Assembly (NCBI GenBank): GCA_030265395.1
Contig: JARFYF010000001.1
Span: forward strand, 97,084,241 to 97,142,441
Reading direction: 5' to 3'
Source of the DNA: Rhina ancylostomus
Taxonomy: Eukaryota
Length of the DNA stretch: 58,201 nt
Each line of letters begins with the position of its first letter. Position 1 is the stretch's first letter. The notes under the pieces are model-generated. The model was not told the DNA's origin. It did not search any database and saw nothing but the letters and a program-made list of their open reading frames with translations. The translations under genes and the position numbers were made by a program. Shown here piece after piece: positions 8,632 to 41,813 of the stretch.

Positions 8632-9935
8632 GAACATGGAACATAGAACACTACAGCACGTACAGGCCCTTTGGCCTATAACGTTGTGCCAGCATTTTAT
8701 CCTGCTCTAAGATCTATCTAACCCTTCCCTCCCACAGAACCCTCTGTTTCTCTTTCATTCATATAGCTATCTAAGAGTCTCTTAAATGTCCCTAATGTGT
8801 CTGCCCCCACAACCTCTGCCAGCAGTGCATTCCACGCACCCACCACTCTCTGTGTAAAAAAGTTTACCTCTGACATCCCCCTTATACCTTCCTCCAATCA
8901 CCTTAAAATTGTGTCCCCTCATGTTAGTCATTTTCACCCTGGGGTAAAGGTCTCTGACTGTCCACTCGATCTGTGCCTCTTATCATGCTTTGCACCTCTA
9001 CCAAGGCACCTCTTGTCCTCCTTCTCTCCAAAGAGGAAAGCCCTAGCTCACTCAACCTATCCTCATAAGACATGCACTCAAATCCGGGCAGCATCCTGGT
9101 AAATCTCCTCTGCACCCTATCTAAATCTTCCACATTCCTTCCATAATGAGGCGACCAGAACCGTACACAATACTCCAAGAATGGTCTACCAGAATTCTAC
9201 AGAGCTGCAATATTACCTCGTGGCTCTTGAACTCAATACCCCGACTAATGAAGGCCAACATACCATACACCTTCTTAACAACCCTATCGACCTGCACAGC
9301 AACCTTGAGGGATCTATAGATGTGGACTCCAAGATCCATCTGTTCCTCCACACTGCTAAGAGTCCTGCCATTAACCTTGTATTCTGCCTTCAAATTTGAT
9401 CTTCCAAAGTGTATCACTTCACACTTGTCCAGGTTGAACTCCATCTGCCACTTCTCAGCCCAGGTCTGCATCCTATCAATGTTGTCATCTACAGCAACCT
9501 TCTACACTATCCACAACACCATCAACCTTCGTGTCATCTGCAAACCTACTAACCCTCCCTTCCACATCCTCATCCAAGTCACAAAGAGCAGGGGTCCCAG
9601 AACAGATCCCTGCAGAACACTGCTGGTCACCGACCTCCAGGCAGAATATGCTCCATCTACCACCACCCTCTGTGTTCTATGGGTGAGCCAATTCTGAATC
9701 CACACAGCCAAGTTTCCCTGGATCCCGTGCCTCCTGACTTTCTGAATGAGTCTTCCATGAGGAATCTTATCAAACACCTTACTAAAATCCATGTATATCA
9801 CATCCAGTGGTCTACCTTCATCAATGTGCTTTGTCACATCCTCAAAGAACTCAGTCAGGCTCATGAGGCACAACCCGCCCCTCACAACGCCATGCTGACT
9901 GTCCCTAATCAGCCTATGTTTCTCCATAGATGGTA
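8632..9935 (-). mobile_element. CR1/HER1 LINE, 5'-truncated RT half with 3' tail (best-preserved LINE in the window)
   Basis: Overlapping minus-strand ORFs SQHGVVRG..C...L.EFFEDVTK.IDEG..DVIYMDFSKVFDKIPHGRL, SVLQGSVLGPLLF, WAEKWQMEFNLDKCEVIHFG and EYCVRFWSPHY..LDRVQRRFTRMLPG. Frameshifted, with a (tgttcta)n tail. Confidence 0.95.
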
Positions 9936-10069
9936 ATACATATTGGGGTGGAAATTCGTCCTCAGTCACTGGCACAAAACATACAACTTAATAATGGCTC
10001 TGCTTCTGAAAAATTCTGATCTGCTGAAGATATTTATATCATTTATCAACTGCTGTAGATGGACTAGAA

Positions 10070-20675: not shown

Positions 20676-21639
20676 AGTCATCTGAAGATTGCTGATAATG
20701 AGGTCTGGCAAAAAAGGACAGCATAATCAGTACCTAATGTGTTAGACTCAAATGACCTGATTGAGTGTATCTTAATCCTTTATTACAGATATATAAAGAT
20801 ATATTTACTCTATATGTAAGACCAAGAAGGTATTCCATTGGATTTCTTTTCTATTGCATTGTTTAGTTGTATTGAAGTAGCAACAAAAGAACTTGCAAGT
20901 TTGATCAGTTGATGAAGTTTGTGTGACTGTTGCAGGACACCACAGATCTCCAAGAAATGGCACAAGTCCACCACTACAATGGATAAAGGGAAACCCACAC
21001 TATAAACCCTGATGAGTCTTTGTGGGCAGATTTCACCAAAGTCAGTGATGAGTACAAACCCTCAATCGAATGGAAAATCTAAGCTATTTTGTGTTTGCAT
21101 GCAGAATGCAAGGAAAAGTTATAAATGGTAATTAAGGGTACGGATCCATTAAAGAAACTGAGGAGGAACTATGCATGGTTGGATATGGTGCTTGGCATGA
21201 TTCTCCTGTAGGATGCTTGGGATTACTTATGTGATGAAATGAGGAAGTATGGACTATTTAGCCCCTTGAGCCTGGTCTGCATTTCATAGAAGTAGAAAAG
21301 AAAGAAAGAAACATACCCTGGTGGTTGAAGCCAGTAAGAACGTGTAGCAGGTCATTTGGTCTCCTGAACTTGCTTCATGACTGATTAGGAGTGTACTTCC
21401 AAATGCCATTTTTGCTCCCTATCTCTTGATGCCCTAACTTAACGATTTCTCTCATAAAATGAAAGGCTTAAAATTGGCAGTTTGGATAAAATAAATTATA
21501 TAAACATAAAATACAGGAATAGGAGCATGTTCTGCCATTCAATATGATTGTGGCTGATCGTCCAAATTCAGTGCTCTGTTCCTGCTTTCTCCACTTTGCC
21601 TTTGATCCTTTTGGCCCCAAGAACTATATATAACTCCTT

Positions 21640-22400
21640 AGAGTCATAGAGACAAACAGCACAGAAGCAGACCTTTTGGTCCACCATGTCCATGCTGGCC
21701 TTTTTGCCCATGCGTAAATCCCGTTTGCCTGCTTTAGGGCCATATTCTTCTATGCCTTGCCTATTTAAGTGTCTGTTTAAATCCCCCTTAAACATAGTGA
21801 TTGTAGTTGATTTCACTACCTCTACTGTCAGCAGGTTTCAGATATCAACCACCCTCTGGGTAAAAAAAAACTTACCCTCAGACCCCTTTAAAACTCCTTC
21901 CTGTCACAAACTATGCCCTCTTGTTTTTGATGGCCCTACCATTGGAAAAAGGTTTTGGCTATTTACCTTATCTATGTCTCTTATAATCTTATATACTGCT
22001 ATCAGGTCATGCCTCAGCCTCATTTGTTCCAGAGAAAACAAGCCCAGCCTATCCAATCTCTTCCCTTAATCAAAGTCCTCCAATCCAGGCAACATCCTGG
22101 TGAATCTGCTCTGCACCATCTCTGGCACATTCACATTCTTCAATGTATCCTGAATTCCATATGCTCTATGTTCTTCTCTTTGGTAAATACAGATAAGAAG
22201 TATTCAGTTAGGATCTTACCCACCTCCCCTGGCTCCACACATAGATAACCTCTTTGGTCACTCCTATTTCAGAATGACTCAGAATTCTCCTTAATCTTAC
22301 CTGCCAAGGATATTTCATGGCCTCTTTTTGCCCTCCTAATTTCTTTCTTAAGCACTCTCCAGCACCGTCTATATTCCTCATGGAACTTACTCAATTGTAG
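21640..22400 (-). mobile_element. HER1/CR1 fragments inserted in the older CR1
   Basis: Own tail agagtcatagag...acagcacagaagcagacc at 21640. Contains LKKEIRRAKRGHEISLAGKIKEN (CR1 ORF2 linker). Confidence 0.8.
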
Positions 22401-22514
22401 TATATTGAATATTTTTAATGACTTGGCTTCAATTGTCTTCTGTGGTAGAGAATTATACAGGTTTACCACCTTCAGCTTGAAGAAATTTCGCCTCATCTCA
22501 GTCCTATATGGCCT

Positions 22515-22880
22515 CGGTAAAGCAGCCAACATAATCAAAGACACCTCTCACCCTGGACATTTTCTCTTCTCCCCTCTCCCATCGAGCAGAAGATACAAAA
22601 AGCTTGAAAACACATACCACCAGGCTCAAGGACAGCTTCTATCCCACTGTTATAAGACCATTGAACAGACCTTTTGTACATTAAGATGGACTCTTGACCT
22701 CACAATGAACTATGTTATGGCCTTGTACCTTTATCCTCTGCCTGCACTTTCTNNNNNNNNNNGCTTTTCCCTTGTACCACCTCAATGTGCTGATGTAATG
22801 AAATGATCTGTATGGATGGCATGCAAAACAAAGTTCTTTACTGTACCTTGGTACACGTGACAATAATAAACCAATTTACC
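22515..22880 (+). mobile_element. Rex-Babar-like LINE 3' fragment inserted in CR1
   Basis: GKAANIIKDTSHPGHFLFSPLPSSRRYK peptide; tail gtgacaataataaaccaattt. Confidence 0.85.
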
Positions 22881-23984
22881 CCTTATCCATAGTCTCTGAC
22901 CTCGGGTCATGAACTCCCACACCATCAAGAACATCCTTTCTACACCTAGTGAATCCAGTACTGTTTGAATTTTGTAGGTTTATATCAGATCCCCTCTCAT
23001 TCTTCTAAACTCTACAAAATATAGGAATCATCAACCCAATCTCCCTTCATACATCATTCCTACCATTTCAGGAATCAGTCCAGTGAACCTTTGTAGCACT
23101 CATTCCATAGCAAGAACATCTTTCATCAGGTAAGGCGATCAAAACTGCACACAATACTCAAGGGGTGGTCCCAGTACAAGTGCAGCAAGACACCCCTGCC
23201 TCGGTACTCAAATCCTCCTGCAATGAAAGCCAATATACCATTTGCCTTAAGTGCCCACTGCACCTGCTTGCTTACCTTAAGTGCATAAGGATACCCAGAT
23301 CCTGTTGCACTTCCCCCTTTCCCAACCTACGGCCATTCAGATAATAACCTGCCTTCCTGTTTTTGCCACCAAAGAGATAAACCTCAGATTTATCCAAATT
23401 ATACTGCACCTGCCACACATTTGCTCACCACTTTAACCCGCCCAAATTGCTCTGCATCCTCCTCACAGTTCGAACACCTACCCAGCTTTGTGTCATTAGT
23501 AAACTTTGATATATTACATTTAATTCCCTCATTTAAATAATTAATGAATATTGTAAATAGTTGCAGAACTGGCACTGATCCCTTCAGGACCCCTTTAGTT
23601 ACTTCCTATCACTTTTAAAAACTACCAGTTTAATACTACTCTTTGTTTCCTATCTGCCAGCTAGTTCTCTGTCCATGTCAATATCTTACCCAGTCCCATG
23701 TACTTTAATTTTGCACATTGATCTCTTATATGGAATCTTATTGAAAGTTTTCTAAATGCACCACATCTACTCATTCCCCTTCATCTATTCTACTAGTTAT
23801 ATCCTCAAAAAAATTACAGTCAGGTTTTCATGCATGATTTCCCTTTCATAAATTCATGTTGTCTTTGTCTGATCTTGTCACTGTTTCCCCAGTGCTCTGC
23901 TATTACATCTTTTATAGTGATATGAATAAAATAAAATTAGTAAGGTTTATACTTAATAAGGAATCTGACTTCCTGATGACATAT

Positions 23985-24750
23985 ATATTGACTTTATAGG
24001 AGTCTATAAAAGGATGAGGGGCATTGATGGTCTAAGTCTTTTTCCCAGGGCAGGGGAGTCTAGAACTCAAGGGCTCAGGTTTAAAATGAGAGGGGAGTAA
24101 TTTAAAGGTGAGCTGAGGACAAGCTTTTCACAGAGGGTGGTGGGTACATGGAACGAGCTGCCAGAAGAGGTAGTAGACTCAGATACAATGCAATTTTTAG
24201 AAGGCATTTGGATACATACTTGGATAGGAAAGTAGTAGAAGGATATGAGCCTAATGCCCAGAGGAGCTTCGCCAGGTTGATTTGTGAGATGAGGGGGTCA
24301 GCCTATGAAGAGAGATTGAGTCACCCGGGACTATACTCACTGGAATTCAGAAGAATGAGAGGGGATCTTATAGAAACATACAAAATTATGAAAGGGATAG
24401 ATAAGATAGAGGCATGAAGGTTGTTTCCACTGGTAGATGATACTAGAACTAGGAGACATAGCCTCAAGATTCGGGGGAGTAAATTTAGGATGGAGATGAG
24501 GAGAAACTGCTCTTTGCAGAGATTAGTCAATCTGTGGAATTCTCTGCCCAGGGAAGCAGTAAAAACTACCTCATTAAACATATTTAAGACACAGATAGAT
24601 TTTTGCATAGCAGGGGAATTAAGGGTTATGGGGAAAAGGCAGGTATATGGATCTGAGTCAATGGCCAGATCAACCATGATCTTATTGAATGGCAAAGCAG
24701 GCTCAACAGGCCAGATGGCCTACTCCTGCTCTTAGTTCTTATGTTCTTAA
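23985..24750 (+). mobile_element. Two tandem CR1 3' fragments (junction near 24257), the second with an intact tail
   Basis: QRSFARLI..MRG.AYEERL..GLYSLEFRRMRGDLIETYKIMKG and TRRHSLKIRGSKFR.EMRRN..QR.VNLWNSLP peptides; tail ttcttagttcttatgttctta. Confidence 0.9.
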
Positions 24751-25560: not shown

Positions 25561-28139
25561 TGAGATGGGATATCTTCTGAAAGCTGCTTTAAAAATGAAA
25601 ATCCTTTACTTCCCTTTTTCTCACTTTTGTTGATCCTCTAGCTACCCACAGGCATCCCACATCCATACTTACCTCAACCGGATGCAATGGGTTAAAACCA
25701 CAAGCCCAAACCTTCCTGGATTCTAGTATCCTGGTTTGAAAAGCAGCAGGGACTCCAGCAGAACAGAGAAGTTTTGTCCCTGAAATGACACAGAGCTTTG
25801 ACAGGTGGGAATCCCTTTCCCTCAGCATTACCGGCTGTCAAAGCTGTAAAGACCTTTGAATGTCTCTGACATTCAGCAATATCAGCAATGAATGAAATAT
25901 TTTGTAAACTTAAATGGTTAAAAATTAAGAAATAAAATTAGCTGAAATTTTTAGAAATTATAGTAATATTAAGTAACATCAAATCAATTAAAAATCTGAC
26001 TTGCTTTCTACTTTGTTTTCTTCTCTTTTGTCCTACAAAAGAAAAGAAATCAAAGTATGTGGATCCTGCACTAGATCTAACCTAGCACAAGGTTTAAGAA
26101 CTAATTCCCTTACATAAGTACTAGGAAATCTCAGCAAGACCACACTCTGCTGCTGGACTACATGGGAGGTCCAGTGGTGGAACATCTGGACAGTCATGGT
26201 GCCTGCTACTACCTAATGTGTTCAGGACTACTATGTTTGGCTACAAATTCACAAAAGTCTCTGAATTGCTTCCATTTGCCAGCAAAATCAAGGTCAAAGG
26301 CCCTAACATTTGCAGTTAAAACACTAAAATTTGACCAATATCATGGCTCAGAATTAGTTTGGTTCTACATTCCAAGTTGCTGCTAATGATTTCAGTGCTG
26401 TTTATCCAGTTCATACTGCTAAACAGTTTTGCCAAGGGGAATAAAACATACAAATCACTACCTTTGCTCTTCACCTTTCACTATGCAAGGCATTGTAAAG
26501 AATTGTAAATACATCATTTGTTTAGAATTGTAGTCTTCCATCTCTTTCCAAATTGCTTCTCAAAGTAAATTGCATCTTCTTGTGAGTTCAGACATTTTTA
26601 GTGGCAAAAGTATGTTGGATTTTCATGGCAAACTTTTGATTCCTATTACCTCCATAAAAGTGATACAAAATTAGACTTGGATTGTTGACTAAGTATTGCA
26701 GAAGTCACAAGTTTAGATCACATGGCAGTCAATATTTAAAATCATTAAGAAAATACAAACAGTGTTTTACAAGATAACATGAAATAAATATTCCTAAAAC
26801 ACTAAAATAAGAGTGCTACTTTCTGTGTAAGTCAACTAAAAACGATGGCCTATTTCTTGCCTGCATATATCCCTTTACATCCCAGTGGGTTTAGGACTCC
26901 CACACAAATGCAGATGTCCCGAATATGCTGGCCACTCTTTAACAGTGATTTCCCTGTTGCACCGTACCACTGGGGCCCAACAGTGGAGCAGATGCTTCCT
27001 GATACTCAAGCATTTACGCTGGGAAATCTGCTCTTAAGTCCTGCACAAGGTTAGAATTTGCACAATATTTGTGAGCTTATTCACGTCATGATGAGACTGC
27101 TTCAAGAAAGTAAAGTATTATGGTCTTTCGCATGCAATATAAATAACATAATTTATTCAAAATTTGTGTTTAGTATGCAATCCTGTATATTAAATTTTCT
27201 TGATCACTGTCATAGGAGATCTGCTCGTGATTAAGGAAAGACACTAAATTGATGTATTGTTGGACACTCCATTTCATCTGCAGTTTCCCTTGCCCTCTTC
27301 AAATTACCTATTGTCAGTGTTGATCCAGATCAAACACAGAACCCAAATGCGGCACACCAATACACAACTGGAGTCAGGATACTTCCTCAGGACAAACCAC
27401 AAGCAATAACTGGAAGGAATCTTGCCTTGGAGATCAGAAGAGGAATCCCAACACAAACTGGATCTTTGCAAAGGNNNNNNNNNNNNNNNNNNNNNNNNNN
27501 NNNNNNNNNNNNNNNNNNNNNNNNNNNNNNNNNNNNNNNNNNNNNNNNNNNNNNNNNNNNNNNNNNNNNNNNNNNNNNNNNNNNNNNNNNNNNNNNNNNN
27601 NNNNNNNNNNNNNNNNNNNNNNNNNNNNNNNNNNNNNNNNNNNNNNNNNNNNNNNNNNNNNNNNNNNNNNNNNNNNNNNNNNNNNNNNNNNNNNNNNNNN
27701 NNNNNNNNNNNNNNNNNNNNNNNNNNNNNNNNNNNNNNNNNNNNNNNNNNNNNNNNNNNNNNNNNNNNNNNNNNNNNNNNNNNNNNNNNNNNNNNNNNNN
27801 NNNNNNNNNNNNNNNNNNNNNNNNNNNNNNNNNNNNNNNNNNNNNNNNNNNNNNNNNNNNNNNNNNNNNNNNNNNNNNNNNNNNNNNNNNNNNNNNNNNN
27901 NNNNNNNNNNNNNNNNNNNNNNNNNNNNNNNNNNNNNNNNNNNNNNNNNNNNNNNNNNNNNNNNNNNNNNNNNNNNNNNNNNNNNNNNNNNNNNNNNNNN
28001 NNNNNNNNNNNNNNNNNNNNNNNNNNNNNNNNNNNNNNNNNNNNNNNNNNNNNNNNNNNNNNNNNNNNNNNNNNNNNNNNNNNNNNNNNNNNNNNNNNNN
28101 NNNNNNNNNNNNNNNNNNNNNNNNNNNCCAGCATGGAAG

Positions 28140-28625
28140 TTTTAATTAACAACAAAGCTTCCATTTGTATACCACCTTCATTGTAGCAAAACATACCGAG
28201 GCATTTCACTGGAATATCACCAAACATGAGATATCTACAAGAGATATTGGAGCTTGGTTAATTAGTTATGTTTTAAGAAGCATCTCAAAGAAGCAAGTGA
28301 GGTGAAGAAGTTTGTAGAGGGATGTCCAGACCTTAGGACCTTGGCAGCAGAAAGAAAGTGATGGTGCCAAATTTTAAGAAGCACAGATGTCATGATTGTT
28401 GAAGAAATGGAGGAGATTACGGAGGTATGGAGGAGTGAGCCCACAGAGGGATTTACAAACCAAGCGGAATGCAAATTTGAAAACTGAGGGTTTGTTTAAC
28501 AAGGGGCTAATGTAGGACATCAAAAACAAGGAAGAGGGGAAATGGGTCTGCCTTAGAATGTGCATAGAAGGGCTTTGGATGACAAGTTTGAATGAAGGTA
28601 CCTAGCAAGGAGTGTGCGGATGGCG
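28140..28625 (-). mobile_element. L2 LINE 3' end
   Basis: aacaacaaagcttccatttgtataccaccttcattgtagcaaaacataccgaggcatttcac is a reverse L2 tail. Similar to 18765-19200. Confidence 0.75.
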
Positions 28626-30336
28626 AGATGTAATTCTTTAAAATTCAGTGTCAAAGACAGTTGTTATTTTGTTGGTAAGTCAAAGAGTAGTATTGTAATC
28701 ATAACATGAAGTTATGCTTGAAGAATGAAATCTAAAGTGGATCCAAATGCAGATAATTGTCTGAAGTGTTAAGCATCCTCTTAAATGTTTCTTCGCTGAG
28801 ATTGAAATAAAAGTCTATTCATCACAGCGACCTGTAGCACTTTCCAATGTTAAAAGTGATAGGTAATAAAACAAGGTGTTTTTTCATATAATTTTATTTA
28901 AAGCATTCAAACAACATGATTACAATGGTTATGTAAAGAATTTTAAGTTGACAACACAAGTGACTAATTAATGATCTAATTAATGCACCCTAGTGTTTAT
29001 ATAGACATTTTTACTATGGGGAACTCTTTGAAACACTTTTTACTGCAAATTAAAGGTTCTTTTCCATAATTTTTTTTTTGTATTTTTACTGCTGTATAAA
29101 CCAATCCTGATGGTCTCCATTAAAATGATGTAGATCTATGTGTAAATGTTTGATGTGCTATTCTCTTGAGGGGCAGTAAAATAATCATTGTTCAGTTAAA
29201 GACTAATGTGAGCTCAAGGGATCAAGGCTCATCACAGCTAGTGAAAATTAAGCTGCTTAAAATGTTTATCCTATCCTCTTGATCCTAAACTTTGATGATT
29301 GAAGAAAGGTGAATATCTGCAAGATTCCAGAAGTTACACTCCTCTCCTATTAAATATTAACTTCAGAATTTAAATATTTCTCAAAGACAAAAAGCCAGGA
29401 AGAACCATAATAATCTTCAAAGTGCTGGTATATAAAAATGCAGTATGCATTAGTTAAACCAGTGTGAGAAAGGTTATTTTAATTACTTAAGTGCACATTG
29501 ACAGGAATGAAGGAATAGATGTTTAAAAAGAATGTCTGTGGCATTAAGTAGCCATGGCAAACCTCAAAAATACAAATAAGAGCAGAAATACATAAAACAA
29601 AAGCATAATTAAAATGGAAATGTGCAAATTGGCTATTCTGGACCAATTGAACTGATGACTTTGTGTGTGAGATATGGGTTGTAGTTACCAAAATTCTAAA
29701 TAATAACAGACCAGGAAAACAATTTGATGCATTATTTCATGTCATTATATTAAATCCATGTCTGACTTTTATGTAGATATGTTGTTGAGATCAGTAACAC
29801 AATATTGGATTTCATTGCATTTCAACTGAATGGCACCTTAGTTGTCAGAAAGAACATGAGTTTAAACAGATATAACCATTTGAAGTGCATGAATAAAAAG
29901 AAAGTGTACAGTTCAGATTTTATGTGTCTGTACTTATTTATATTATGTGCCTGGAGTCGCTCACTCTTGTAGACTAATGTGAACTTGATTTCATTTTTTA
30001 CCTAGTTTTATTTTAGTTTGCGGGGTTGGAATTGGTGATATATATTTAAATGAGGATATTGATACCTCATTATTTTCCTGTAAGACACTCAGTACTTGAA
30101 TATTTATGCATACATGTGGACATGGTTATATGGCAGTTATAAATTTCCCCTTTTGGGAAGACTGTAGGTGTTTGAAGGTTACATTATACATGACAAGTGT
30201 TGCTGCCATGAATGTTGAAGCACAGGGAAGTCACAATAATTACAGAGTATTGGCTACTGACTTTGGAACAAGCCCTCAGGGAAACTACAGCCACCAGCAG
30301 GTTTGCGTGTTGACAGTTTTTTTCTTTTCCTCTTAG

Positions 30337-30486
30337 CTTTGAAGATATAATAAGGTTCTTTGGGGTGAAGCCAAAATCTGGGGAGAAAGAGATTACACCA
30401 AACTACATATTCATGTTGTGGTTTGAGTTCTGTACGGATTTTAAGAATACTTGGAAACGCGAGAGCAAAAATATCTCTAAAGAAAG
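30337..30486 (+). CDS. fmn1: Internal coding exon of formin-1 (C-terminal end of the FH2 domain; 150 nt, phase 2/phase 2)
   Basis: Strong acceptor gtttttttcttttcctcttag| with a TGAC branch-point candidate at 30311, and donor AAG|gtaaga at 30487. Translation (x)[49 protein letters not shown](R) closely matches the vertebrate FMN1 segment as I recall it ([51 protein letters not shown]). The [12 protein letters not shown] ending fits FMN1 better than FMN2. Confidence 0.95.
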
Positions 30487-30589
30487 GTAAGAAAGATAAA
30501 ATCTTCCATGGAAAACTTTTAATCATTCTGGAAAGTATTCTTCTTTAATTTGAACACTTTTACTGTACCATCGAATTATAGTTTACTGA

Positions 30590-31100
30590 CATTTTTTTGT
30601 GAGCTCGGCGTAAAAAAGTTTGATTCCCTCAGGGTAGATTGAAGAAGTTGCCAAAATCTGCTTTACCCACAAGGAAGATAAACACACATAATCTGATAAA
30701 TTACACTTTCCCAACTCTTTTCAATTACCTGCTGATAAAGTGGAATGAGAGCAGTGCTAATTTGTAACAGATTGCTTCACTAGTGCATTTTTATGTTGAA
30801 ACAGCCTAAATGAGCTGATATTATTGTTGCAGAAAGTACAGGCAAATAAAAGCAAATGCTTTTCCAGTTATTAAACTTCACTTGCATCAAAGAAAAACCC
30901 CCCAGACCTAGGCCACACTTAGCACAATGTCAGAGCCCCACACTGAATTTACGGCAGCACATATGACCCCAAGTACCCTGCTGGGGACATCAAACTGCGT
31001 GACACTGCTTCTCGCAACAGTCTCCTGATTTTATTGGTTTGAGAAAGAATAACCTTATCCCATATTTGCTTTTAGGTAAGGTTTCATGAAGGAAGTTTTT
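30590..31100. promoter_or_regulatory. Candidate grem1 fin/limb enhancer (CRM2/GRS1-like) in the fmn1 intron
   Basis: Non-repetitive block next to the fmn1 exon. Contains HOX13-type TTTTATTGG (31029-31037) and GGCGTAAAA (30607), HOX-like TGAATTTACGG (30944), TCF/LEF CATCAAAG (30885) and ACATCAAAC (30987), GLI-like AACCCCCCA (30896), three WGATAA sites (30676, 30694, 30733) and E-box CATATG (30960). Function is inferred from motif content and locus position only. Confidence 0.5.
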
Positions 31101-32699
31101 ATGTGAGAGCTACATTACGACTTAAAGATTGGCATTTCTCAGTTCTGTGCTCTTTTTACACTCCTGTGTTATAAGCTCTGATTCAGTATTTCAGTTTTCA
31201 ATCAAACTAAACACTGAAATCGTTAAAGTTATGATTTTTATGTGATGAGATTTTTAAGCAACTATGGAGCAAAGAAAGAAATATTTTGTATATTTTCAGC
31301 CTATTGTCAATTTTATCAATATAAGCTATTGCAATAGAGTCTAATCCATTTAGATCCTTGTATTTGGAAAGTTATCTATACTTACAATTGTGAAATATTT
31401 TGATAAAATCTTGGCTCTAAAATTATTGTTATATTCCATAGAAAAATTATATAAATAACATTTTCACTACATTAACAGTTCAGACAACTCAGTACAGTTT
31501 CCTGGCAGTTTTCTTTAATTAATTCAATTTAGGTAACAATACAAGTATAAACATATTTTCTTTAAATTATTTGGTCAACTTTTATGTCATACTTACTGTC
31601 TGAATACTATTCAAGAAAAGCCAGTTGGATTTAAAATGTTTAATGTCTGATTCTATGAACACTCTTGGGAAAAGTAATAAAAATTGAAGAAAAATGTGTA
31701 GGTAATGTAACACAATGCAATACTGTTAACTCATTGGTTTCAAAATTACATCATTGCTGATGGTTATTCATAGATTTACTTCTGTATCAATGCCTTTTGT
31801 GCTGGATAAAATAAGAAATTAAATTTTCTTCATGATACTGTGCTGTATGGATAATAAGAATCTTATGTCAACTGCTACTTTAGGGTTAAAGTTGGAATTT
31901 AATCAAAAACAGAAGGAATCCATTAAGATATATAACCAAAATTGGGAGTTCCTTGAAATGTTGTAAAATGGAACAGCAGAAAAAACATCCACATCTAGAA
32001 TGTCTTGTAAAGTCATGACCCTTAGTGACACTGTTTTCCTAAGTGTGAAACCGTTGATTTACCACCCAGTTTACTAGAAGTGGATCAGAATCAAATTAAT
32101 TGATATAATTCTAGCTTTTCTAGTCTCGTGTTTCTCTTTTCATTCCAACTGTGTTAATGCAGATCTATTATGAAGCATTATTGAAACAATATTATTTAGC
32201 CATTCATATTACCACATTTACTCTCTAATGCGGCATGAAATCAATGGGTTGACTTGATGGAGTAGTATAAAATGGATGATAAAAATGTAAATCAGGCTGT
32301 CAATTCACATCTAACCATTTTACGCCAGTGCAAACTATCAAGATGCAACTCAACCTTAGAAAATTGACTCAACTTAAGGTTCATATTTTAGCATGCTGTA
32401 GTGTCAGCAAAACAGGACTATTAAAATTTTGATCCAATATCAAATTACATTGAGCTCAGGCACATGATGTTAATATTGTTGTGTTAATTTTTTCCTGTTT
32501 ATTTAATCTAAGTACTTTAGATACATGTGCCTTTAAATCTTGTTGTGTTATGTTTCTGCCAACACTCAGATGTTGTTAGTTTGTATTCTGTCACCCATTC
32601 ACTCAGAGAAAACAGGAACTGTGGATTTATTAACACAAAGAAGGAACTGACTCACAAGTAGGGAAATACATATTCATTGGCAAAGGGACAGACTCATTA

Positions 32700-33237
32700 G
32701 GACAGATTTTCTGACCCATACCCCTGTGCTAGCACTACATTGAAGCTGGGGACCTACAGCATGATCAAGACCTTGCTATTTCCTGTCCCAGGCAATTAAT
32801 CTAGACCAGTGGCATACCCAACATAGCCCAGGTATAAAGCCTGCAGCTACAGGATGTAGAGATTGGGATCTTCTCCTATTATTGAAGATCAGTCTCCAAA
32901 ATGTTAAAGTTGGATATTAAGAGCCTTACAGGAAGGGATTGTAGGGGATGGGGGCTGGGAATCTAACTTGGAAAATAACACCATGCAGCCTTTGGTCTGT
33001 CCCCAGCAGTGCCAATGGACTTTGCTTAACTCCAGTCAGTGACGTGCCACAGCACAGTACTTCCTGGGTGCCTCTGTGCTGGGGTGCCCACCAAATAATT
33101 GCAGCACATGGTCTCATTTGAAGCAGGCCTGCACCTCATGGAAGTGTAGGATAAATTCCATCTTTACCAGCTCATGGAAAATGGTAGAAATCTTGAAGGA
33201 AGAGGATTGAAGACCAGGCAACCTGAAAGTCTGTCCC
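32700..33237. mobile_element. Non-autonomous DNA transposon (MITE, PIF/Harbinger-like)
   Basis: Terminal inverted repeats GGACAGATTTTC (32700) and GAAAGTCTGTCC (33225), 11 of 12 matching, with TTA/TTT flanks. Confidence 0.55.
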
Positions 33238-33849
33238 TTTATCCCAATGTTTCTGAAGGCAAGGATAAGAATAATCAGCCTGATTATGTTCATTCTAAGA
33301 TGTAAATATTCTGTGTCTCAGAGAGAGATTAGAGGCAAATGCTGGCACTTGATGGGTAATTATACCTCACTGCCTTTGTAATCTTCAATTCCCAATTTCT
33401 GTTTCCTTTAACTAAAACTAAGGCTGCAAGTATGAAATTTCAAGTTTGTCATATATTCATCCACTGAAAAATTGCTATTAAGTTTTTTCTTAGAGATTGA
33501 ATCCAACCAAAGATTTTAAAATTCTGTCAAAAAATGCCCCAGTATTACAACAGATAAATTCATCAAAGGTATAACTGTAAGCAAAATGAACAAAGAACAT
33601 GCAAGTATTGAATGGCAGGTTTCATACGACGAGTACAATAGGATGCTACAGCTTATCTGAGCATTTTGCTTTTGGAGTTGAAAATCAGCTAGGGTTCATG
33701 CTCCTATCTTTGGGCGTTAAGTTTTAGTCTTCTGGTAGTAGAAAAGATCCCCATGAATAGTCACTGGACAACCCTCAGTAGTGGCCCCACTCCTGACCAT
33801 GACTCTGCTACATTCTGCATCTTCAGTCACCAACACACAAAAAAACTAA

Positions 33850-37990: not shown

Positions 37991-40853
37991 CAGTTAGAGA
38001 TTGAAAACACAAATGTAAAAATCACACAGTGTAGTGCAGGAGGACATGTCCAGCAGACCAGACTGTGCTAATGGAGAAATGTCTTTCATTGTACTCCTTT
38101 TCTTTAGCACCTTGAATTCATGATCAGAATTAAGGAAAAATATATTCTAAGTATCATACTCCGAGGATAAATGTTAACTTTTTAATTAAAATCTCAGCTG
38201 TTGCTTTTTTGAAATTCATGTCTGACTGCCCATTTTACTTAGTGCTTCATTTCCTAAACCTGTTGTACATTCATGCTTGTGCTCTCCATTCTATTTATTC
38301 AGCAGTTTCTAGTTTTTTTAAAAAAAACTCATTTCATTATATCAAAGCCAGAATATACATTCATAACTACTGTGTTTAAAAAAAAACAAACTAAACTAGA
38401 GTAAAATAAGCAGTTTGTTATGAATGAGAACTTTTAATGTTTGTGTAATCTCAATATAAACAGTTAACATGTTTCTCTTGGAAGATGATGTGTGTATTAG
38501 CTTCAAAGATCATTAGCACAAATTCTAAATGTTTTACTTCTCTCATTAGTCACACTGAATTTACACGGGTGCATGAGTTTCACCATCTCAAGTGATGAAT
38601 GATGATATCTGTCTTCTTTTGAAGAGATGCCTATTACAGCTATTATAGTCAGATTTCACATTTCCCCTCAATGAATTTCTGACCTTTTCCATTTAAAATG
38701 GGCTTTTACTAGCTGTTTCTGACAACTTAATTGGAGAATTGCATGGTATTCGCATCATCCTTATTTTAAATCAGTCAGGATATTGGCCACTTTGCTAACA
38801 TTCCATATAACTCATTGACCAATAATTTCACTTCAGTTATGATATACAAATTATTACAAAACCTTTCAAAATTCATGAACACAAACAGTATCTTCCTAAT
38901 GAAGACTCTCTTATTTTCCTCTCTTCAGTCTACCCATGCAAAGTAAAAGAAATACAATGAATGAGCCAGACCACTGACCTTTAGTGAATAGCAACAAAGT
39001 TTGAAACTGGCCCAGAGCACTGGATTAAAAACTCCGATCCTTCATGGTTGCAACAGATTTAGATGAAAGAAATTTAGACTAGCTTGAACAAGTTATTAAT
39101 TAGGATAAAATCCTGAAAATTCTCACAATGGACCACAATTTGGTACTCAGTTTGTGATGTGGCTTGCAAGGACATTATAAATCCCTTGTTTGAAAATAAA
39201 AACGTTACACTCAACCAGCATTGGAAACTGTTCTGAAGCTGAGTTAGGAGAATGTAAACAGATATTCACTCTTCATTTCGCATATGCAATATTTGGCCAA
39301 GAGATGTTTTGTTCAGAAAACATTGCACAATCGGTAGATTCTTTGGGACACCTTTGCTGACCTTGGCAAGCCCAGACATTCACCATAGAAAAAATACTTT
39401 CACAAAAGCAAAGTTAATAATGTCTTGAAAAGGGCAAGTTATGAACAATTTAGATGTCTTGCTGTCATAAACTTTTAAACAAATGGCAGTAATTTATCTC
39501 CTAAAGAAATACATGAATTTTAATCTCATTAAAATAAGGCTTTGTCACAGGTCACAATCCAGTCCACCTCTCACTGTACTAACTACCTCTAGATAAATAA
39601 AGTTAAGTTTACCATTTTTAAATACTTATTGTGTTTTAACCCCTCATAAATCTAGTTTGGAGAGGATTCAAGCCTCAAGTCAGGGTGTGGTAGACACGGG
39701 AGTTATAAAAGGATGATACAGAGCCAACAGGATCAAAGGGACTTGTGAAGAGAATTATAGGATGTTGGAATGAATGGCCTTGAATCTAAAAAGAATACTG
39801 AGCTTGGTACAGAACTATTCAAAGCTAACTTAGTAATATAACCAGGAACAAAATGAAGAAAGCAAAAATAATAATTAGGAGATTGGATGGATTTGTGTGT
39901 GTACAAAACTAATGAAGGATGGAACCTAAGGAAGGATGAGATGGAGCCAAAAGGGGAACTGTGGTAATTTGGGCAGATCTAGCTGAGCAGTTACGTGGAG
40001 TGGCTTTTGTGAACCTTAAGTGGAACTGGGAGAAAAAGTCGTTTAATAGTTCAAAGGCTTTTGATTGAAGGCATTTTAAGAGCAAGATCTCGGGAGATGC
40101 CTCCTGAGATCCAACCACCACTCTTGACCTGCTCTGCCTCCTGAGACAACCATCAGGTATGGGTGGTCCGCTTAGCCAGGTAATGATTCTCCGGAACAGG
40201 TTGGTTTGAAGTGCAGGAGGCAGGCACCTGAGTGGTGAGTTCAGATCCAGGACAGTCCAATCTTTTGAGTTAAAGAGAGAAAAGTTCTTGATAATAAGAG
40301 CCAAATATAGGGTTATATCCAGAAATCATTCATGCCAGTATGACCAATCCATGATTGGATTTATACATAATGTAACGAAAGCAGAAACATTGGAAATATT
40401 TAAGCACCAACAAATGCTACATTTGCTTAACTATAATGCCATTATAGATGAATAAAGTAAAATGGACTGAATGAAATAGACTCATCCTTACCCATCTTTT
40501 GATGTCTTTGTATATACTCTTAAAACAGTATTTTAGGTAGAAGTCTCTGATTCAATTACAAACACAAACTATAAATTAAAGCATATTGCAAATATGAATG
40601 CCTTTCTTATAAGGAGTAAAAGATTACAACCATTGTTCAAGTCAGAATGCCCTTTTCAATATAGTTTATACTGCACAAAAAAACCTTTGCAGATCATTTT
40701 ACTTAAGGGAGTGAAAGAATATTATAAATTCCATTTATCACTGCATTAAGGAAGTGCCCAAAGGGACAGTTGTCTCTCTTAAACTACCTTATGGTTCTTA
40801 CATGAACAAACCATGCCACACTGAGATTACAACATGTTGAATGTAATAACAAG

Positions 40854-41813
40854 TGGCCCAGATTTCTTAGTCAGCAGTGAAATTAATGCATTTGATAATG
40901 ATCTCAAAGAAACACGGTAGTGTAGTGGTTAGCATGATGCTATTACAGCGCCAGCGACTGGGGTTCGATTCCCGCCGCTGCCTGTAAGGAGTTTGTACGT
41001 TCTCCCGTGTCTGCGTGGATTTCCTCTGGGTGCTCTGGTTTCCTCCCGCATTCCAAAGATGTATGGGTAGGTTAACTTGGGGTTTAAAATGGGCAGTGTG
41101 GACTCATTGCGCCGAAAGGGCCTGTTACCACACTGTAAATAAAAACTTTAAAAACTTGTCCACATTTTATTCTCTATGACTTCTATTTTGCCTTTCCTGA
41201 CATCAGTTGATGTCAGCCGTCATCTTTAGAGATCCCTAGCAACAACAGTGAAGTCATCAAACAGCCCCTGTCACATTGAAGAATTCTCATGTTCTGCAAA
41301 CCAGGAAGTAAAAAGCACAATTTAATTGACATTTTAAGCATTGTACAGAGTGTGAAATGAATATTGAAACATGTATATGGGAGGCTGAAATAGCAAAAGA
41401 ATTTTTTTAAATTTTAAACAAGTGTGGAATTTTAAACTATTTAGATAAGAGAATGTCAGTCCACATACTTAAAGCTGGTTTTAGAATCAGAGAGGTTGTT
41501 AAGCAATCATTTTGGTTTAGTGAGCTTTTAAGAAGACTTGTGTGTCAAACAAGTGTGACATTTTTAGGGAACTTATTGCTTATATATAGAATATTCCTTA
41601 ATTGTTCCTATTAGTGCACTCATTCCTTCAGCTTGCCCTTGAGATGGCTTCAAAACAGCTCACTTTCTGAAGGAACAGGGACTGACAGTAGCTTCTGGAT
41701 TTCTGCATTCAACTAAACATGTGTGTACTTCAGAAGTCATTGTCAGATTTCCTCTATTTATAACAGTGAGAACTGAAAGCCTCACTATTATTCTCACCGC
41801 AAATTCCGGGCCA
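40854..41813. mobile_element. Non-autonomous DNA transposon with TGGCCC(A/G)GA(T/A)TT termini, containing a SINE insertion
   Basis: Left end tggcccagatttc (40854), right end gcaaattccgggcca (41799-41813). Internally similar in layout to 52272-53290. Confidence 0.6.
40912..41155 (+). mobile_element. tRNA-derived V-SINE/HE1-like SINE
   Basis: A-box-like tagtgtagtggttagc, B-box GGTTCGATTCC (40962), V-domain ggagtttgtacgttctcccgtgtctgcgtgg.tttcctc.gggtgctc.ggtttcctccc and an A-rich tail. Confidence 0.92.

Follow-up and report, generated by a model that had tools for sequence, protein, structure and literature searches.

Within the 58,201 nt of Rhina ancylostomus DNA analysed here (the window), we located a single coding exon of Formin-1 (Fmn1), followed by a non-coding stretch, 30590-31100, that an initial annotation had proposed as an ancient fin enhancer of grem1. 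The exon and the intervals that bear on this proposal are as follows.

30337-30486, + strand: 150 nt coding exon of Formin-1 (Fmn1), corresponding to mouse exon 22
30659-30826: deeply conserved core, orthologous to HMCO1 (= CRM2 CE), from a by-eye comparison with the published alignment
~30552-31071: the 520 bp mouse HMCO1, projected from published coordinates and anchored on the end of the third alignment block
~30659-31039: the 381 bp mouse-chicken conserved block, projected from published coordinates
~30819-30926: the mouse amplicon with GLI3 enrichment, projected from published coordinates (PMC3541112)

Read from the DNA sequence alone, the exon is bounded by an acceptor AG at 30335-30336 and a donor GT at 30487-30488, and the frame 30338-30487 runs for 50 residues without a stop. 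In a protein search, of which the best 120 of 317 matches were considered, the exon peptide is identical to sawfish formin at 49 of 50 residues (98%) and also matches sevengill shark formin (96%) and human formin 1 (76%); the highest score in this set belongs to a sturgeon record that carries an unverified flag, at 80% identity, and among the matches listed the best full-length ones are elasmobranch formin-1. As far as 50 residues can tell, these identities indicate an elasmobranch, probably a ray. Pfam assigned no family to the 50-residue peptide, which is too short for this purpose; its protein-search matches carry FH2. In the sawfish protein 41 residues remain C-terminal of the sequence encoded by 30337-30486, in keeping with mouse exon 22, which lies close to the gene's end. 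This numbering derives from the position near the C-terminus and from published papers rather than from a full gene model.

No further Fmn1 exon was found in the window using tblastn with seven proteins or 20-residue local alignments with three proteins, searches that could miss an exon that is short or falls in an N gap. With a single exon between positions 1 and 58201, the flanking introns apparently exceed ~30 kb and ~27 kb, provided that no exon sits in an N gap (the window holds 973 N in six gaps, the largest at 27475-28127).

Homology to the Grem1 enhancer core

The core of the mouse Grem1 enhancer was described as HMCO1 and has since been renamed the CE region of CRM2, CRM2 itself being the new name of GRS1 (PMC8455560). 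An alignment of the HMCO1 core from ten species is printed in Supplementary Fig. S1 of PMC3541112, and we compared the window with it by eye, so that an error of a few columns is possible in the counts that follow. Positions 30659-30826 are colinear with the published core and identical to coelacanth in 138 of 168 columns and to chicken in 139 of 168; the last two 60-column blocks hold 98/120 matches to coelacanth, 96/120 to chicken and 82/120 (68%) to mouse. The identity of ~82% to both coelacanth and chicken exceeds the level of at least 70% over at least 100 bases of the published core that we took as the mark of homology. For unrelated DNA, the expected number of 168-column matches of this quality over both strands of the window is below 1e-40, as estimated from a binomial with 28% background identity that ignores the one or two gaps allowed.

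The location agrees with this match. The core begins 173 bases behind the exon-22 counterpart, and the published CRM2 CE (= HMCO1, inside GRS1; PMC3541112, PMC8455560) has the same Fmn1 exon 22 as its neighbour, in the same orientation. The initial annotation had proposed the stretch as a candidate CRM2/GRS1-like core, and the right exon, the right side of it and the 168-column match to chicken and coelacanth at ~82% identity all bear this out. Its boundaries, 30590-31100, also nearly coincide with the projected published element (~30552-31071), and its background statement that CRM2/GRS1 lies at a 3' Fmn1 exon and is conserved to cartilaginous fishes is accurate (PMC8455560, PMC3541112). These projections assume zero net indels outside the core, the base-by-base comparison having covered 30659-30826, i.e. 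the 5' half. The main support for the putative enhancer identity is this sequence homology to the published core, which the initial annotation had overlooked.

Sequencing runs from four other organisms (X2, X8, X9 and X14) were placed on 28200-33500. We compared the pieces listed (76 further pieces lie outside this comparison), excluding short repeat matches and X9, whose single piece allows no split; the limits of the pieces are contig breaks. In run X8 the purely non-coding piece 30632-31356 differs at 10 of 725 bases, as against 185 of 4425 elsewhere (P 4e-5). The corresponding values are 4/827 versus 64/4028 for X2 and 115/1807 versus 230/2387 for X14; in these two runs the element piece includes the exon, which lowers their divergence. 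The element is thereby less divergent than its flanks in all three splittable runs, with the evidence for non-coding constraint coming from X8 and agreement from X2 and X14. Non-coding conservation extends past the exon, both as the core matching chicken and coelacanth and as the low divergence of 30632-31356 in run X8.

In other respects 30590-31100 is single-copy, ordinary-looking DNA with flat depth in all four related runs. The earlier description of it as having no recognisable repeat agrees with our searches, which found no tandem array and no overlap with any listed repeat family (15 direct, 14 inverted). Rfam returned no match in the window. HMCO2 (= CRM3) and HMCO3 lie upstream in Fmn1 and are further conserved blocks of this landscape; searched for with one 14-letter motif each, a weak test, they gave one chance-level match and none, respectively, in the window.

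Motif content and the base at 30734

The sites discussed in this section are the following.

30734, + strand: G replacing A, creating a third GATA-like site at 30733-30738
30886-30907, + strand: a TCF-type site (30886-30892) clustered with a GLI-like site that has two mismatches (30896-30904) and with CAGAC (30903-30907), each at chance level
31029-31037, - strand: HOX13 consensus site CCAATAAAA, where the mouse-chicken conserved block is projected to end

Motif counts in 30590-31100 were judged against 2000 dinucleotide shuffles and 103 window tiles of equal size, for 12 motifs with consensus definitions and uncorrected P values. The perfect HOX13 site reported on the minus strand is present and is the sole copy in the 58 kb window (0/103 tiles; shuffle P 0.018, for a motif chosen post hoc). 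Other posterior-HOX sites had been claimed as well and were recovered, with four copies of HRTAAAA (four or more in 7/103 tiles; P 0.022) and two of CGTAAA (1/103 tiles; P 0.004).

For the remaining motifs presence and significance part company. Three GATA sites are there as described, at chance level (19/103 tiles; P 0.085), as is one SMAD-type CAGAC (56/103 tiles), and E-boxes, of which one had been claimed and three were counted, are equally unexceptional (53/103 tiles). In place of the two TCF/LEF sites claimed there is one strict site (30886-30892), with two near matches at 30619 and 30989, and 47 of the 103 tiles hold a strict site. The GLI-like sites were overstated: no GLI consensus occurs in the stretch, the best candidate (30896-30904) has two mismatches and such sites occur in 55/103 tiles, and 3-mismatch sites number four against a shuffle mean of 7.7, i.e. 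fewer. All six motif classes taken jointly, under loose definitions, are found in 7 of 103 tiles and in 99 of 1000 shuffles. The cluster at 30886-30907 falls within the projected GLI3-enriched mouse amplicon.

The motifs had been interpreted as the SHH/GLI, HOX13, WNT and BMP inputs of Grem1. Of these, the HOX-type sites are somewhat above background and the WNT, SMAD and GLI sites occur at chance level; the sites were scored with plain consensuses, whereas PMC8455560, with 11 Gli and 10 Hox13 sites in its Fig. 7a, used lenient matrices (p < 0.01). We rejected the motif list as proof of an enhancer, its counts being mostly at chance.

The G at 30734 sets the ray copy apart from the published CRM2 CE, where A is otherwise invariant: the matching alignment column reads A in 10/10 species (by eye, PMC3541112), and A is also found in 4/4 related runs. 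With A the site would read HOX13-like if the bases around it match the window (among the differences listed, 40 of 491). The other two GATA-like sites are shared more widely, the one at 30694 lying in conserved columns (9/10 published species) and the one at 30676 occurring also in opossum, chicken, lizard, frog and coelacanth in the same alignment. The G may be a fixed change, an allele or an assembly error.

Predicted function and rival explanations

Much is known of this element elsewhere. A Grem1-LacZ BAC reporter loses its activity in mouse limb buds once HMCO1 is deleted, and HMCO1 shows GLI3 enrichment (PMC3541112); mouse CRM2 holds SMAD4, GLI3 and HOX13 peaks (PMC8455560). In mouse limb buds LacZ is driven by CRM2 from elephant shark (6/6) and bamboo shark (5/5), the bamboo shark element is disrupted by mutating its Gli or Hox13 sites, and enhancer activity of coelacanth CRM2 is also known from transgenes (PMC8455560). 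Unlike the posterior grem1 domain of shark fins, the activity of shark CRM2 in mouse is broad (PMC8455560), so even for sharks the mouse assay may not reflect the pattern in native fins. A 2026 review (PMC13121165) restates the conservation of the element from mouse to bamboo and elephant shark. The element itself is therefore already known, and its presence in Rhina ancylostomus comes as no surprise, given that bamboo shark and elephant shark, which flank the lineage on either side, both have it. The Fmn1 exon is counted as part of CRM2 in all species (PMC8455560), and the ray copy forms the same exon-plus-CE unit as that of the two sharks, whose copies are active in mouse limb buds. The mammal-specific ME part of mouse CRM2 is not expected in the ray copy.

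Taken with the homology described above, these data suggest that 30590-31100 is, with high probability, orthologous to the CRM2/GRS1 core (HMCO1 = CE), lies in the Fmn1 intron behind the exon-22 counterpart and probably acts as a long-range enhancer of grem1 in the fin bud. By analogy with the mouse and shark copies, it is likely a working fin-bud enhancer in Rhina ancylostomus. In fin-bud mesenchyme the core would be occupied by HOX13 proteins and by GLI factors under SHH control, as the mouse and shark experiments suggest, and SMAD4 may also bind it early, as in mouse; we found no evidence of a WNT input to CRM2 in the available portions of the literature examined. From there the element is predicted to reach the grem1 promoter, which by synteny should lie beyond the right end of the window. 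No grem1 frame was seen among the window frames of at least 80 aa, and since the gene lies outside the window its assignment as target rests on synteny. Raised grem1 in fin-bud mesenchyme would allow GREM1 to dampen BMP, and this dampening would sustain the SHH-GREM1-FGF outgrowth loop, presumably mainly in the posterior paired fins.

It is possible that the same element has been rewired in this lineage and drives a shifted domain, in the anterior pectoral fin or the clasper, aided by changes such as the G at 30734. This base removes an A kept in all ten published species and four relatives and makes a GATA-like site, and CRM2 activity is known to vary between mammals (PMC8455560). We nonetheless regard rewiring as unlikely, as a single base that is missing from four relatives cannot explain a trait common to all batoids and could reflect allelic variation or a fault in the assembly, while the element overall is more conserved than its flanks. 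Skate grem1, moreover, is reported to be biased to the posterior pectoral fin (PMC10115646, PMC5709974). The specific proposal that the G swaps a HOX13-like for a GATA-like site, shifts grem1 expression in the fin bud and so contributes to the fin shape of the group we consider very improbable. The posterior bias of skate grem1 also leaves the link that had been drawn to expanded pectoral fins doubtful, the batoid novelty being anterior, and we rejected anterior wing expansion as a default role of the element on the same ground.

If the stretch were instead conserved for Formin-1 itself, through splicing of the exon or expression of Fmn1, its position inside an Fmn1 intron, 173 bases from the splice donor, would be readily understood. 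However, deletion of the mouse orthologue abolishes a Grem1 reporter (PMC3541112), the shark copies act as enhancers on a heterologous promoter (PMC8455560), zebrafish retains the Fmn1 exon without the element (PMC3541112), and no Rfam family is found in the window, all of which make a Formin-1 role highly improbable. Most of the listed motifs occur at background rates, as would be the case for a chance cluster in ordinary intron DNA, but such DNA would not match the published core at ~82% of 168 columns, and a look-alike at a paralogous formin locus is countered by the lack of any formin-2 name among the best 120 of 317 protein matches (compared by name only). Either of these origins is scarcely credible.

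The orthologue of the CRM2 core adds a further cartilaginous fish to those known to carry this well-studied limb enhancer, with coordinates ready for a reporter test. The literature searched, in which most subscription papers are missing, held no reporter assay of CRM2 from a ray or skate. The available text of the bamboo shark fin paper PMC7932699 holds no passage on the CRM2 enhancer, and at least five grem1 rows occur in the expression and chromatin-contact tables of the skate genome supplement (PMC10115646), of which none in the available part can be mapped to the window.

Other features of the window

The sole perfect GLI consensus in the window lies at 40160-40168 on the minus strand, in a slightly GC-richer patch ~9 kb behind the candidate enhancer; it could be a chance occurrence or another element of the grem1 landscape. 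By eye, ~40915-41140 has a tRNA-like head and the look of a SINE. Broken reverse-transcriptase-like frames at ~8700-10000 and 21500-24750, also seen by eye, with repeats listed there, are likely decayed LINE copies.
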